IMG/VR virus record: IMGVR_UViG_2663763154_000010
Length of the DNA: 10,342 bases
Direction: 5' to 3' (one strand)
Source of the DNA: a virus
Lineage: Duplodnaviria > Heunggongvirae > Uroviricota > Caudoviricetes
Position 1 is the first letter of the stretch, and every line of letters begins with the position of its first letter. Below are positions 1 through 10,342 of the stretch, piece after piece. The notes below the pieces were generated by a model. The model ran no database searches and was not told the DNA's origin. It saw only the letters and a list, made by a program, of their open reading frames with translations. The translations under genes and the position numbers were made by a program.

Positions 1-516
1 CTGACTCATTTGAGTGGAAAGGATGTTGCCGGTCTTCTCGCATACCTTGGTTTGGGAGAAGGTTCTGCATTACCTGTTGGTGCGCCTGTTCCGTGGCCTT
101 CTGAGACACCTCCAACAGGCTGGATGAAATGCAACGGTGCGGTTTTTTCTGCTGAAGAATACCCGGAACTGGCAAAGGCTTATCCGACAAATAAATTGCC
201 TGATTTACGAGGTGAATTTATTCGTGGCTGGGATGACGGGCGTGATGTTGATAGTGGACGCGCTTTATTAAGCGAACAACTTGACGCTATGCAAAATGTT
301 ACGGGTTCTCTGATTGATAACACTATGGGGTCAGCTTCCTCAGCATCTGGAGTTTTTAATGTTGGTTCTAGTTCTGGGGTTAAATATGCCGCTCCATCAA
401 CTGGTAATGCATTTAGTTACTATGGTGTGACACTTGATTTATCCAGGAGTGCAAGAACATCAGCAGAAACAAGGCCACGTAACATTGCATTTAACTACAT
501 TGTAAGGGCAGCATGA
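1..516 (+). CDS. H: Tail fibre protein, C-terminal part (5' end lies upstream of the window); the variable receptor-binding domain in the currently expressed orientation
   Basis: Frame 1 is open from the window edge to TGA at 514-516. The translation ends ...TRPRNIAFNYIVRAA, a C-terminal signature recalled from Mu S / P1 S / P2 H-type fibres. The stop overlaps the start of the downstream assembly gene (ATGATG). Confidence 0.85.
   Translation: MTHLSGKDVAGLLAYLGLGEGSALPVGAPVPWPSETPPTGWMKCNGAVFSAEEYPELAKAYPTNKLPDLRGEFIRGWDDGRDVDSGRALLSEQLDAMQNVTGSLIDNTMGSASSASGVFNVGSSSGVKYAAPSTGNAFSYYGVTLDLSRSARTSAETRPRNIAFNYIVRAA
35..60. repeat. Left crossover site of the invertible segment (gix/hix/pix-like 26-bp site)
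   Basis: TTCTCGCATACC-TT-GGTTTGGGAGAA: two imperfect 12-bp half-sites fitting the TTCTCnnAAACC pattern around a central TT dinucleotide. Its distal 14 bp (47-60) are the exact inverted repeat of 1868-1881. Confidence 0.7.
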
Positions 517-1124
517 TGACCACAAAAAAAATCACTTTGGATGAAAACGGATTTGCCACAGAGGCTGGCTTCATTACCGTTTACAACTACAACGGAGAAA
601 CGCGGGAATATATTTCCATATCAACTGAATATCTTGCGGTTGGCGTCGGTATCCCGGCATGTTCTTGTTTAGATGCACCAGTTACACATAAGGCTGGTTA
701 TGCAATCTGCCGTTCTGCAGATTTTAACTCATGGGAATATGTGCCAGACCATCGCGGTGAAATCGTCTTTAGCACCGAAACAGGAGAATCAAAAGAAATC
801 ACAGCTCCGGGTGATTACCCTGATAATACAACCACTATCGCCCCGTTAACACCATACGATAAATGGGATGGTGAGAAATGGGTGACGGATACCGATGCAC
901 AGCATAGCGCCGCAGTAGATGCAGCAGAAGCACAACGCCAGTCGCTGATTGATACTGCAATGGCTTCCATCAGTCTGATTCAACTGAAATTGCAGGCCGG
1001 GCGGAAGCTGACGCAGCCAGAAAACACCCGACTTAACGCTGTGCTGGATTACATTGACGCGGTGACGGCAACAGATACCAGCACCGCGCCGGATGTCATC
1101 TGGCCTGAACTGCCGGAGGCGTAG
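513..1124 (+). CDS. Tail fibre assembly protein (chaperone for the + orientation fibre)
   Basis: 203-aa ORF translationally coupled to the fibre gene (ATGA overlap), with AAGGG 5 nt upstream. The C-terminal region ...DTAMASISLIQLKLQAGRKLTQPENTRLNAVLDYIDAVTATDTSTAPDVIWPELPEA resembles the Tfa/gpG/Mu U family C-terminus. Confidence 0.85.
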   Translation: MMTTKKITLDENGFATEAGFITVYNYNGETREYISISTEYLAVGVGIPACSCLDAPVTHKAGYAICRSADFNSWEYVPDHRGEIVFSTETGESKEITAPGDYPDNTTTIAPLTPYDKWDGEKWVTDTDAQHSAAVDAAEAQRQSLIDTAMASISLIQLKLQAGRKLTQPENTRLNAVLDYIDAVTATDTSTAPDVIWPELPEA

Positions 1125-1515
1125 GCCATTCAATATCGAGTGCTGTTAAAGTATTAATACGCATCAATAGCACGCGATATTTTTTCCATGCCAGTAACAG
1201 TTTCGTTTCATCATCTGTTGCCATACCTAAATCAACCGCATCCTGAAGCGGCGCTATTACATTCGTTGCCTCTGCTATCAGTGCAGATTTCTTTTCATCA
1301 TTTATTAAGGCTAATTGTTCTGGTGTTGGAGAAGGACGGTCAACAATGACAGGGTGACCGTTCTCACCACAGGTAATCATTTTTGTTACACTCTGTGAGT
1401 TAATCAGTGTTTTCCACTCTGATTCCGAGATTTCCACTGCATCATCAGGAATATTGGTGCCGTGAAATTCAGTCGAATAAAATCCGTTTGTCGATGCAGA
1501 ATAAAAATATGACAT
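1096..1515 (-). CDS. Alternative tail fibre assembly protein (for the inverted orientation)
   Basis: The - strand ORF ends ...MATDDETKLLLAWKKYRVLLMRINTLTALDIEWPTPPAVQAR, matching the Tfa family C-terminus. The start is placed at the Met of MSYFYSASTNGFY (ATG at 1513-1515), 4 nt after the stop of the upstream silent fibre cassette. In-frame starts at 1548, 1563 and 1611 are possible, so the 5' end is uncertain. Confidence 0.7.
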   Translation of the reverse strand: MSYFYSASTNGFYSTEFHGTNIPDDAVEISESEWKTLINSQSVTKMITCGENGHPVIVDRPSPTPEQLALINDEKKSALIAEATNVIAPLQDAVDLGMATDDETKLLLAWKKYRVLLMRINTLTALDIEWPTPPAVQAR

Positions 1516-1519
1516 TTCG

Positions 1520-1881
1520 TTAATATCCCATTGCAATGTAATACGCATCAGCAGATGAACCATATCCTGAACCGGGCGACACTGTAATATTAAATCCAGT
1601 GTTATGGACATTTGTCGCCGATACAGTCGGCTGCCCTGACGCGCCAGTAACGTTCAATGTAACTGTGACAGCAAGGACTCTTGAGAATGTCATCGGGAAC
1701 CTCATCCCGTATGTTGAAGATACATTCGGGGAGCCATTCAACTGACCGCACTGTAAAATTAATCCAGACGGAAATTTTTGCGCAGCAGCCGTTGCGGTAT
1801 TACTTGACGCGAACAGGCTCATATCAGGTATCTGATTCGCCCCTGTACCTACATTCCTTTTAGCCGCTTCTCCCAAACCAA
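1520..1881 (-). CDS. Silent alternative tail fibre C-terminal cassette (expressed only after inversion fuses it to the constant N-terminal part of the fibre gene)
   Basis: The - strand frame is open from the right crossover site to TAA at 1520-1522. It encodes GLGEAAKRNVGTGANQIPDMS...YYIAMGY. The GLGE codons at the crossover are identical to those at the left site, and the core dinucleotide occupies codon positions 2-3 in both, so inversion gives an in-frame fusion. Confidence 0.75.
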
Positions 1882-1893
1882 CGTTTATGAAAA
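1868..1893. repeat. Right crossover site of the invertible segment
   Basis: TTCTCCCAAACC-AA-CGTTTATGAAAA; the first 14 bp are the exact reverse complement of 47-60. The central AA is the complement of the left-site TT, as expected for sites in inverted orientation. Confidence 0.7.
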
Positions 1894-1948
1894 TGCAGAG
1901 ATAACGGGCAACTGGCATCATCTCCGGTTTTTATTCAGGGGGATGCTC

Positions 1949-7741: not shown

Positions 7742-8904
7742 TGCTGGATGCGCGGACATTTTATGCAGGCAGTACGCTGACGCCGGATTACATGCTGATG
7801 CTCGACAGCAGGGATATTACCGGCAATATCAGCGACCGTCTGATGAGCATGACCCTGACGGATAACCGGGGCTTTGAGGCTGACCAGCTTGATATTGAAC
7901 TGAACGATGCCGACGGGCAGGTCGGGCTGCCGGTTCGTGGCGCTGTCCTGACGGTGTATATCGGCTGGAAAGGTTTTGCCCTGGTATGCAAAGGGAAATT
8001 TACCGTTGATGAGGTTGAACACCGGGGCGCGCCGGATGTGGTCACCATCCGTGCCCGGAGTGCAGATTTTCGCGGGACGCTCAATTCCCGCCGGGAAGGC
8101 TCATGGCATGACACCACGCTCGGTGCGATTGTTGAGGCGATAGCCTCCCGTAACAGGCTGGAAGCCAGTGTCGCTCCGTCACTGGCAGGAATTAAAATCC
8201 CGCACATCGACCAGTCGCAGGAGTCTGATGCGAAATTCCTGACCCGTCTTGCAGAACGCAACGGCGGTGAGGTCTCGGTAAAAATGGGAAAACTGTTGTT
8301 TCTCAAAGCGGGGCAGGGGGTGACGGCCAGTGGTAAAAAAATCCCGCAGATTACCATCACCCGCAGCGACGGCGACCGTCATCATTTTGCGATTGCTGAC
8401 CGTGGAGCTTACACCGGCGTAACGGCAAAGTGGTTACACACCAAAGACCCGAAGCCGCAAAAGCAGAAGGTAAAACTGAAACGCAAAAAGAAAGAGAAAC
8501 ACCTGCGCGCACTGGAGCACCCGAAAGCGAAACCGGTCACGCAGAAGAAAGCGCCAAAAGTACCGGAAGCGCGCGAAGGTGAATACATGGCCGGTGAGGC
8601 TGACAACGTTTTTGCACTGACCACGGTATATGCCACGAAAGCACAGGCCATGCGCGCCGCTCAGGCGAAGTGGGACAAACTGCAACGGGGTGTGGCGGAG
8701 TTCTCCATCAGCCTGGCTACCGGTCGGGCAGATATTTACACGGAAACACCGGTTAAAGTGTCAGGCTTTAAGCGCGTCATAGACGAGCAGGACTGGACAA
8801 TCACTAAGGTGACACATTTTCTGAATAATAGCGGCTTCACGACGTCCTTAGAGCTTGAGGTCAGGCTTTCTGATGTGGAGTACGAAACAGAAGATGATGA
8901 GTGA
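7741..8904 (+). CDS. D: Tail protein D (late control gene D family)
   Basis: 387 aa, the same length as P2 gpD. Translationally coupled to U. Contains the family's Lys-rich low-complexity linker (KPQKQKVKLKRKKKEKHLRALEHPKAKPVTQKKAPK). Confidence 0.95.
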   Translation: MLDARTFYAGSTLTPDYMLMLDSRDITGNISDRLMSMTLTDNRGFEADQLDIELNDADGQVGLPVRGAVLTVYIGWKGFALVCKGKFTVDEVEHRGAPDVVTIRARSADFRGTLNSRREGSWHDTTLGAIVEAIASRNRLEASVAPSLAGIKIPHIDQSQESDAKFLTRLAERNGGEVSVKMGKLLFLKAGQGVTASGKKIPQITITRSDGDRHHFAIADRGAYTGVTAKWLHTKDPKPQKQKVKLKRKKKEKHLRALEHPKAKPVTQKKAPKVPEAREGEYMAGEADNVFALTTVYATKAQAMRAAQAKWDKLQRGVAEFSISLATGRADIYTETPVKVSGFKRVIDEQDWTITKVTHFLNNSGFTTSLELEVRLSDVEYETEDDE

Positions 8905-8922
8905 TGTGATTTATTTATCTAT

Positions 8923-8951
8923 TTGTTTTGTAAAGATAAATTAACTAAAAT
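8923..8951 (+). promoter_or_regulatory. Putative sigma70-type promoter for ogr
   Basis: TTGTTT (8923-8928), a 17-bp spacer, then TAAAAT (8946-8951), about 35 nt upstream of the ogr ATG. The -35 hexamer is weak, so this is a by-eye call. Confidence 0.3.
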
Positions 8952-8985
8952 GGCAACATCAACAAAACCGGAAGAGGTGCTCGCG

Positions 8986-9204
8986 ATGTTTCATTGTCCT
9001 TTATGCCAGCATGCCGCACATGCGCGTACAAGCCGCTATATCACTGACACGACAAAAGAGCGTTATCACCAGTGTCAGAACGTGAATTGCAGCGCCACGT
9101 TCATCACCTATGAGTCGGTACAGAGATACATCGTGAAGCCGGGAGAAGTCCACGCCGTAAGGCCGCACCCGTTGCCGTCAGGGCAGCAAATTATGTGGAT
9201 GTGA
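8986..9204 (+). CDS. ogr: Ogr, zinc-finger transcriptional activator of late genes
   Basis: 72 aa starting MFHCPLCQHAAHARTSRYITDTTKERYHQCQNVNC, with the C-X2-C-X22-C-X4-C zinc-binding arrangement. GAGG lies 8 nt upstream of ATG 8986. The longer ORF from 8923 is an upstream in-frame extension, and 8923-8951 is better read as the promoter. Confidence 0.9.
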   Translation: MFHCPLCQHAAHARTSRYITDTTKERYHQCQNVNCSATFITYESVQRYIVKPGEVHAVRPHPLPSGQQIMWM

Positions 9205-9212
9205 TCACAAAA

Positions 9213-9240
9213 ATAGCCCCTCAGTTGAGGGGCTTTATTT
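9213..9240 (+). terminator. Rho-independent terminator after ogr
   Basis: Perfect 8-bp GC-rich stem AGCCCCTC (9215-9222) / GAGGGGCT (9227-9234) with a 4-nt loop, followed by TTATTT. Confidence 0.7.
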
Positions 9241-9247
9241 ATGGTCG

Positions 9248-9267
9248 ATGTGGACGCTATGTGGACA
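9248..9267 (+). repeat. Two direct repeats ATGTGGAC spaced 11 bp apart; candidate integrase arm-type binding sites
   Basis: ATGTGGAC at 9248-9255 and 9259-9266 (the second extends to TGTGGACA at 9260-9267), between the ogr terminator and host DNA, where the P' arm of a P2-type att site is expected. Confidence 0.4.
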
Positions 9268-9332
9268 GCGGTTGACATAAATCCATTTATATCATCAGGT
9301 TAGGTGCTTTTTTGTGACACCATCCCTGTCTT

Positions 9333-9358
9333 CCCCCACATGATGTGGGGTTTTTTTT
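9333..9358 (+). terminator. Rho-independent terminator, probably the host cpxP 3' UTR / CpxQ terminator
   Basis: Stem CCCCACA (9334-9340) / TGTGGGG (9344-9350) with a 3-nt loop, followed by T8 (9351-9358). Confidence 0.7.
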
Positions 9359-9439
9359 ATCCTCAATTTGCCTGCTGCTTAATGCATTGCAGATGATTTG
9401 CTTCCGTTATACTAGCGTCAGTTGATAGCGGGAGTATTT

Positions 9440-10342
9440 ATGAATCAATCTTATGGACGGCTGGTCAGTCGGGCGGCGATTGCTGCGACGGCGATGGCTT
9501 CGTTGCTATTGCTGATTAAAATTTTTGCATGGTGGTATACCGGGTCGGTGAGTATTCTCGCCGCGCTGGTGGATTCGCTGGTGGATATCGGCGCGTCGTT
9601 GACGAATTTACTGGTGGTGCGATATTCCCTGCAACCTGCCGACGATAATCACTCGTTTGGTCACGGTAAAGCTGAGTCCCTCGCGGCGCTGGCGCAAAGT
9701 ATGTTTATCTCCGGTTCGGCACTATTCCTGTTTTTGACGGGTATTCAACATCTGGTATCTCCAACACCGATGACAGATCCAGGCGTCGGGGTTATCGTGA
9801 CAATTGTGGCGCTAATTTGTACGATTATCCTTGTCTCGTTTCAGCGGTGGGTGGTGCGCCGGACGCAAAGCCAGGCGGTGCGGGCTGATATGCTACATTA
9901 CCAGTCTGATGTTATGATGAACGGCGCAATTCTGCTGGCGCTGGGGTTGTCTTGGTACGGCTGGCATCGCGCCGATGCTCTGTTTGCATTGGGAATCGGC
10001 ATCTATATTTTATATAGCGCGTTACGCATGGGATATGAGGCGGTACAGTCATTACTGGATCGCGCATTGCCTGATGAAGAACGGCAAGAAATTATTGATA
10101 TCGTGACTTCCTGGCCGGGTGTTAGCGGCGCTCACGATCTTCGCACGCGGCAGTCAGGGCCGACCCGCTTTATTCAGATTCATTTGGAAATGGAAGACTC
10201 TCTGCCTTTGGTTCAGGCACATATGGTGGCGGATCAGGTAGAGCAGGCTATTTTACGGCGTTTTCCGGGATCGGATGTGATTATCCATCAGGACCCCTGT
10301 TCCGTCGTACCCAGGGAGGGTAAACGGTCTATGCTTTCATAA
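9440..10342 (+). CDS. fieF: Cation diffusion facilitator family Fe2+/Zn2+ efflux transporter FieF (YiiP)
   Basis: 300 aa starting [59 protein letters not shown], recognised as E. coli FieF. GGGAG lies 5 nt upstream of ATG 9440. The ORF track start at 9422 is a TTG extension. Confidence 0.93.

Follow-up and report, generated by a model that had tools for sequence, protein, structure and literature searches.

What is a sequence resembling the small RNA CpxQ doing at the right end of a prophage, beside fieF, and does lysogeny at this locus disturb the stress RNA that it resembles? We addressed this in a 10,342-nt stretch of DNA (which we refer to as the window, meaning the whole of that length), in which open reading frames and RefSeq matches identify first the right end of a P2-like prophage and then host DNA; the attL and the integrase of this prophage fall outside the window. 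The prophage genes identified were tail-fibre genes with an invertase, sheath, tube, tape measure, U, D and ogr, and the prophage body is ~96–97% identical to its nearest relatives. Positions 10–2542 form a Gin/Cin-type invertible tail-fibre host-range switch, in which 27-nt inverted repeats (35–61 and 1867–1893) bracket two opposed sets of fibre C-terminus and assembly genes, with the following domain matches:

10–516, plus strand: Collar, first fibre set
513–1124, plus strand: Caudo_TAP, first fibre set
1096–1611, minus strand: Caudo_TAP, opposed fibre set
1520–1921, minus strand: Gp53-like_C, opposed fibre set
1943–2542: serine invertase (Resolvase and HTH_7), after the fibre sets

At the other end of the window, positions 9205–9361 are very probably the attR of a WPhi-type P2-like (Peduovirus) prophage that, judged from the sequence comparisons, would have integrated in cpxQ, between cpxP and fieF, its own copy of the core restoring a full cpxQ at attL and leaving a second copy, without the 5′ seed, at attR. 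The features on which this reading draws are:

8986–9204, plus strand: ogr, activator of late genes in the P2 family and the final gene at the prophage right end (Pfam Ogr_Delta, E = 1.1e-21; annotated ogrK in matching RefSeq genomes)
9213–9236, scoring on both strands: ogr / F-operon rho-independent terminator, stem at 9215–9234 (terminator scan; aligns with the annotated terminator of P2, NC_001895)
9245–9272, plus strand: att P arm with two direct P2-type Int arm repeats, TGTGGAC, at 9249–9255 and 9260–9266 (aligns with the annotated P2 “Int P arm”)
9276–9309, plus strand: candidate IHF region, homologous by position to the IHF protein_bind feature annotated in P2
9303–9315, plus strand: phage-specific GGTGCTTTTTTGT in place of CpxQ nt 1–14 (identical in the WPhi attP, different from host TTTTCCTTGCCATA)
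9316–9358, plus strand: orphan copy of CpxQ nt 15–58, with the small hairpin, C-rich internal region and terminator and without the 5′ seed (alignment to annotated K-12 cpxQ)
9316–9361, plus strand: att common core, shared by attP, attB, attL and attR (empty-site and free-phage matches, five-way alignment, flank listing)
9334–9358, plus strand: CpxQ terminator hairpin, 7-bp stem at 9334–9350 with loop TGA, then T8 at 9351–9358 (terminator scan; RNA fold)
9343, plus strand: loop polymorphism at core position 28, A in the window and phages and C in K-12, which marks the side of the crossover inherited
9362–10342, plus strand: unaltered host DNA, comprising the fieF upstream region and fieF (9440–10342) (K-12 alignment; Pfam Cation_efflux and ZT_dimer)

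A sequence-only reading of this DNA had proposed that the segment resembles the cpxP 3′ UTR and CpxQ, and alignment bore this out. The string GACACCATCCCTGTCTTCCCCCACATGATGTGGGG followed by T8 occurs verbatim at 9316–9358, and the segment corresponds to nt 15–58 of the annotated K-12 cpxQ (NC_000913, 4106330–4106387, equivalent to L001:1831–1888; sequence UUUUCCUUGCCAUA-GACACCAUCCCUGUCUUCCCCCACAUGCUGUGGGGG-U8) with two differences, a loop C to A at 9343 and a run of four rather than five Gs at 9347–9350. The internal hairpin and C-rich region (nt 15–38) are identical to K-12. Window 9301–9358 has a predicted RNA fold of −16.7 kcal/mol, the 7-bp terminator stem being one base pair below the native 8-bp stem and the U8 tail being intact. 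The same reading held that the sequence just upstream is unlike the CpxQ 5′ region, and GGTGCTTTTTTGT is indeed unrelated to UUUUCCUUGCCAUA: it is phage DNA, identical to WPhi upstream of the att core. The string was rightly reported but misplaced, as it lies at 9303–9315, two bases rightward of the 9301–9313 given. CpxQ nt 1–14, the 5′ seed UUUUCCUUGCCAUA (located following PMC6755755), are absent from the window, which has GGUGCUUUUUUGU there instead; the native RNase E context CCCUG/UUUUCC (slash at the cut) is likewise absent from the window copy, though a U-run is present. Upstream of this copy lie ogr, its terminator and the phage P arm, not the cpxP stop codon, and in related lysogens cpxP stands ~32 kb from the attR copy, beyond the prophage. 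The proposed orphaned, 5′-altered CpxQ module beside fieF is thus real, with nt 1–14 replaced by phage DNA.

Rfam 15 at gathering thresholds gave no match in the window, and no sense-strand CpxQ family was matched in Rfam 15, permissive thresholds included. The one meaningful match at permissive thresholds, the Rfam family Hrs1 (RF02628), scored on the minus strand at 41.4 bits on K-12 cpxQ versus 28.8 bits on the window copy, neither of which reached the gathering threshold of 56.4 bits, and the drop quantifies the loss of the CpxQ 5′ part in the window copy. Hrs1 (“Hfq-regulated sRNA 1”) covers K-12 cpxQ end to end on the opposite strand (L001:1816–1888; window 9293–9358, minus), and its consensus starts with A7 then CCCC, resembling a reverse-complemented terminator. 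Hrs1 appears to be the CpxQ homologue modelled on the wrong strand.

The extent of the att core follows from two sets of matches. Prophage-free E. coli genomes align with the window only rightward of 9316 (query position 167), where the block 9316–9450 shares 98.5–99.3% identity with empty-site genomes (E ~1e-60), and free phages (R18C, P24B2, fiAA91-ss and Yersinia-plated P2-like phages) align from the left and end at 9361; the core is placed at 9316–9361 because phage matches and empty-site matches overlap there. The sequence-only reading had considered an att core inside the cpxP 3′ UTR, and more exactly it sits within cpxQ itself. A five-way alignment of attB (K-12), attL and attR (lysogen O169:H41, NZ_CP024223), attP (R18C) and the window gave the core as GACACCATCCCTGTCTTCCCCCACATG[A/C]TGTGGGGGTTTTTTTTATC, 47 bp long elsewhere and 46 bp in the window, which has one G missing. 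The count of 47 bp agrees with the 47 nt that we take to be the length of the WPhi core. The WPhi genome (NC_005056) carries the same 47-bp core, matched by the window at 46/47 positions with the single G deletion, and the 126 bp 5′ of the core (window 9190–9315) differ between the two at two positions only. The ogr terminator, Int arm repeats and IHF region of the window also precede the core in the free genomes of both WPhi and R18C; the window P arm equals the attP of both, save one base versus WPhi at 9269. The arm repeats fit the published P2-type arm consensus tgTGGaCa (PMC3448106), and an IHF-consensus-like TATCATCAGGTTA was matched by eye at 9290–9302. The phage-core junction reads GGUGCUUUUUUGUGACACC (9303–9321); on the host side, identity to the K-12 cpxQ–fieF spacer begins at 9359, and 9362–9445, which includes the fieF upstream region and start codon, is identical to K-12.

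These comparisons suggest how the junction may have arisen. The phage attP consists of the ogr terminator, the Int arm-site pair, the IHF region and a 47-bp core equal to cpxQ nt 15–58 plus ATC, and a WPhi-type tyrosine integrase would recombine this core with the same chromosomal sequence. Because attP holds that 47-bp copy, and the phage thereby supplies its own version of the 3′ three-quarters of the gene, integration would rebuild a full cpxQ directly 3′ of cpxP. The attL would then comprise the cpxP stop and a full-length cpxQ with its terminator, and attR, the junction in the window, keeps a second copy that has neither the 5′ seed nor the site of RNase E processing and is cut off from the CpxR-dependent promoter of cpxP.

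Related lysogens have this arrangement. In four complete E. coli lysogens whose whole prophage region was read (L003, L006, L007 and L008), attL runs from the cpxP stop through AAACCCTG, TTTTCCTTGCCATA and the 47-bp core into the phage P′ arm and an integrase 98.8–99.7% identical to WPhi Int; by this order the gene is complete at attL and retains the native 5′ seed and processing context. An attL partner (core direct repeat, WPhi-type integrase and cpxP) is present in all lysogens read, these four and L076, which serve as proxies for the attL of the window, and full-length cpxQ follows cpxP at attL in 5/5 of these E. coli/Escherichia lysogens. The predicted folds of the attL cpxQ and of K-12 cpxQ are the same, at −17.4 kcal/mol each. 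WPhi-type junctions occur in 787–791 of 5,426 complete E. coli genomes (~14.5%), and an 85-nt segment of cpxP stop plus cpxQ is found at full coverage in 5,426/5,426. The sequence-only reading had named an unchanged CpxQ beside cpxP at the other prophage junction as the observation that would count against it, and an intact cpxQ is what was found there in every relative examined. For the genome of the window this holds by proxy, because the window stops short of its own attL; judged from the relatives, its cpxQ is probably intact too, and the closest proxy, strain A36, whose attR is of the same rare four-G kind, has cpxQ intact at attL. The statement that lysogeny would split cpxP from its native 3′ end fared in between: it is literally right by the allele data below, but the replacement is sequence-equivalent and a full cpxQ is rebuilt. 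A 32,330-bp record from an E. coli assembly, NZ_JBQJRQ010000002.1, matches the 45–46-bp att core at ~16241–16286 and neither host flank, as an excised or circular P2-like phage (attP form) would look as its own contig.

Three other readings of the locus were weighed. That the resemblance is generic to terminators, or chance, draws on nothing more than weak Rfam matches of the hairpin to unrelated terminator-containing families; the alignments refute it, and we discard it entirely, since there are 42/43 identities plus one gap that reach 18 nt 5′ of the hairpin, and the match runs on into 980 nt of syntenic fieF DNA. The sequence-only reading further supposed that lysogeny could perturb envelope-stress sRNA regulation, by severing cpxP from CpxQ or giving it an altered CpxQ. 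On its side, the attL cpxQ is a host-phage chimera whose loop base becomes A in C-allele hosts, and the C-int (repressor-integrase) operon at attL is directed at cpxQ and cpxP. No minus-strand terminator was detected from the int stop codon to cpxP at attL (L003:6340–7900, NZ_CP024223), where the sole minus-strand terminator-like site lies inside cpxP; antisense read-through across cpxQ is conceivable because of this, and lysogens might make antisense RNA across cpxQ. In the free phage it is instead the bidirectional ogr terminator that comes after int. Against perturbation, every lysogen read has a rebuilt cpxQ of full length, all 5,426 genomes keep the gene, the A loop is the majority native allele, the predicted folds are identical, and the seed, processing site and promoter are all untouched, so that we consider perturbation very unlikely.

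The remaining reading gives the orphan module a function as RNA, either mimicking CpxQ in part under phage control or serving as a decoy for Hfq or CpxQ targets. RNase E, with Hfq assisting, makes CpxQ by cutting close to the cpxP stop codon (PMC9438474), and the 5′ seed of CpxQ (nt 1–14) serves nhaB and cfa, C11 being needed for cfa regulation (PMC6755755). A route to such an RNA can be drawn within this reading, as improbable as the reading itself: read-through of the imperfect ogr terminator (U-tract UUAUUUAU) that ends at the perfect CpxQ terminator, followed by an RNase E-type cut in GC/UUUUUU that would give a ~50-nt Hfq-binding RNA with the internal C-rich seed and without the 5′ seed. 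The U8 terminator and the C-rich region, which is predicted to be single-stranded, are intact; the module is present in every free WPhi-type phage genome, just 3′ of ogr. The CpxQ seeds are R1 and R2. That CpxQ has two seed regions (PMC7213987) and is a dominant partner of phage RNAs in lambda infection (bioRxiv 10.1101/2024.10.31.621285) also speaks for a working RNA. On the other side, there is no promoter-like site from ogr to the module, TTGACA at 9272–9277 having no properly spaced −10, and a full terminator stands 100 nt 5′ of it; the seed for nhaB and cfa is missing, a stem deletion is tolerated in two genomes, and Int and IHF binding, with the requirement for a match to attB, fully account for the conservation. 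Because the scan of 8850–9500 gave no promoter-like site, we gave up the idea that the orphan copy has its own promoter. We regard a working RNA as very unlikely. The same slight chance attaches to a half-CpxQ (internal seed plus Hfq-binding terminator) transcribed by read-through, in the lysogenic or the lytic state, that would retune the inner-membrane stress response as a truncated mimic or decoy, and, separately, to C-int antisense RNA across the rebuilt cpxQ at attL. An expressed orphan copy would mean that a phage carries part of a host stress sRNA, but none of the present results points in that direction. We infer instead that the orphan copy is mainly a recombination site and a second terminator that insulates fieF from phage transcription, not an sRNA gene. 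A recombination site is its most economical role; it would also be a backstop, terminating ogr and late transcription ahead of fieF in the way that the native cpxQ terminator serves cpxP.

The loop base indicates which part of each junction came from which partner. All phage copies read have A at core position 28, and in two lysogens with different prophage types that were read directly, AH21 and JKHS016, attL has A and attR has C. A synthetic attR query with C had nine exact matches among complete E. coli genomes, and synthetic attL queries with C, one for each of two P′-arm types (~793 lysogens together), had no exact match; as exact matches, these counts could be inflated by clonal relatives and could overlook junctions with one additional SNP. 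The position-28 base thus travels with the right-hand partner, which places strand exchange most likely at or 5′ of core position 28 (window 9343). The attR loop, descending stem and T-run would on this pattern be the original cpxQ terminator of the host, cpxP receiving a near-identical phage copy at attL. Within this part of the core, the dyad AGACA-N7-TGTCT, which forms the CpxQ small hairpin, is our preferred candidate for the core-binding and overlap region where exchange occurs, as a 5-bp dyad whose geometry suits core-type sites on either side of a 7-bp overlap. The terminator palindrome is an alternative exchange region, since heteroduplex segregation could mimic the pattern in two events: were position 28 inside the overlap, segregation could give attL = A and attR = C with 50% probability per event, and the segregation was read directly in two verified independent events. 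The allele pattern favours exchange 5′ of the loop.

The A base could not be retained as a phage-specific change, as A is the majority native allele: the A-loop version of cpxQ is matched exactly by 4,107/5,426 E. coli genomes, and the allele is also predominant in the 120 species representatives. The other 1,319/5,426 complete E. coli genomes (about a quarter) differ from the A-loop cpxQ, with K-12 and related laboratory strains (loop C) among them. An exact attR with C is found in only nine of ~790 lysogens, counts that are lower bounds uncorrected for clonality; phylogroup structure could account for so few, or integration could be poorer into C-allele hosts if the base lies near the overlap.

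The G absent from the descending arm of the window terminator (9347–9350) is, among the 5,426 complete genomes, shared only with strain A36 (L006), whose attL cpxQ has the normal five Gs. With one other complete genome only, we rejected the missing G as a general attR feature. The orphan copy could be under relaxed constraint, the loss could be a homopolymer sequencing error, or a core-type Int site could be damaged, with possible impairment of excision; the deletion falls within what is probably the core-binding dyad.

The integration site itself is known. For WPhi and L-413C, PMC3448106 gives an integration position in MG1655 of 4104392 by its own coordinates, which we take to lie within the cpxP–fieF intergenic region; for E. 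coli W, a table in PMC3032704 places the Wphi1 prophage at “cpxP-fieF” and also lists P2-like prophages at the sRNA genes rybB and cyaR. The window is thus the ordinary attR scar of a known phage type at an already published site. A literature search for CpxQ as a phage integration site returned nothing relevant, and no searchable paper names cpxQ as the WPhi attB, the site being called “cpxP-fieF”; to name cpxQ as attB is re-labelling, not discovery. CpxQ was reportedly described in 2016, later than the mapping of the WPhi site.

Of the known systems the closest is WPhi, with attB between cpxP (yiiO) and fieF (yiiP), grouped with L-413C, R18C, fiAA91-ss and the Wphi1 prophage. The window is like the WPhi attP in its core, chromosomal site and gene order D-ogr-att; the P arm and IHF region match save two bases, and the window lacks one G of the terminator arm. 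P2 (NC_001895) has the same layout of ogr, terminator, Int P arm (TGTGGAC repeats), IHF site, core, Cox sites, P′ arm and int, and its arm repeats and terminator align with those of the window, but it differs in having an unrelated 27-bp core and an unrelated host site (locI/locH), with an Int 51.5% identical to WPhi Int. The alignment of the annotated P2 attP with the window diverges at the core, between P2 type and WPhi type.

A long common core that restores the targeted RNA gene is a standard principle (PMC3448106), and integrations at RNA-gene 3′ ends include 186 in tRNA-Ile, Fels-2 and SopEPhi in ssrA, and P2-like prophages at cyaR and rybB (PMC3448106; PMC3032704). Like these tRNA-, tmRNA- and sRNA-targeting phages, the WPhi type has its core over the conserved 3′ end and terminator of an RNA gene, which is left intact at attL with a partial duplicate at attR; the difference is that the target here is a 3′UTR-derived sRNA without its own promoter. 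Restoration of such a gene must therefore leave it attached to the cpxP mRNA as well, and it does so. Compared with native CpxQ, Hfq-dependent and cut by RNase E from the cpxP 3′ UTR, the window copy shares nt 15–58, including the small hairpin, C-rich region, terminator and U8, whereas the nt 1–14 seed with C11, the RNase E site, cpxP and the CpxR-dependent promoter are missing.

The target sequence extends well beyond E. coli. At least 120 Enterobacterales species representatives have an exact copy of a 35-nt segment of the core, and in 117/120 loci an identical 14-nt 5′ seed lies upstream of it. An exact search of the species-representative genomes for P arm plus core gave 0 matches. Integrases like that of WPhi (70–99% amino-acid identity) lie at cpxQ in Yokenella, Citrobacter meridianamericanus, Kluyvera, Kosakonia and an Escherichia species. 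Outside Escherichia the loci with such integrases (L015, L023, L053, L066 and L127) are from Kosakonia sacchari (apparently a remnant), Yokenella regensburgei, a soil MAG, Citrobacter meridianamericanus and Kluyvera sp. The attL copies in these non-Escherichia species end in T8-ATC-aat, versus T8-GCC in most other representatives (taken as unoccupied), which is consistent with an attL 3′ end supplied by the phage.

For annotation, a partial cpxQ-like second match beside fieF, as in ~15% of E. coli genomes, is best annotated as a WPhi-type attR, not as a damaged or duplicated sRNA gene, and an intact cpxQ is to be expected at the other end of the prophage. The rule that the targets of temperate phages are ultra-conserved 3′ ends of RNA genes, for which the phages bring the replacement piece, gains a further example here, with a 3′UTR-derived sRNA.
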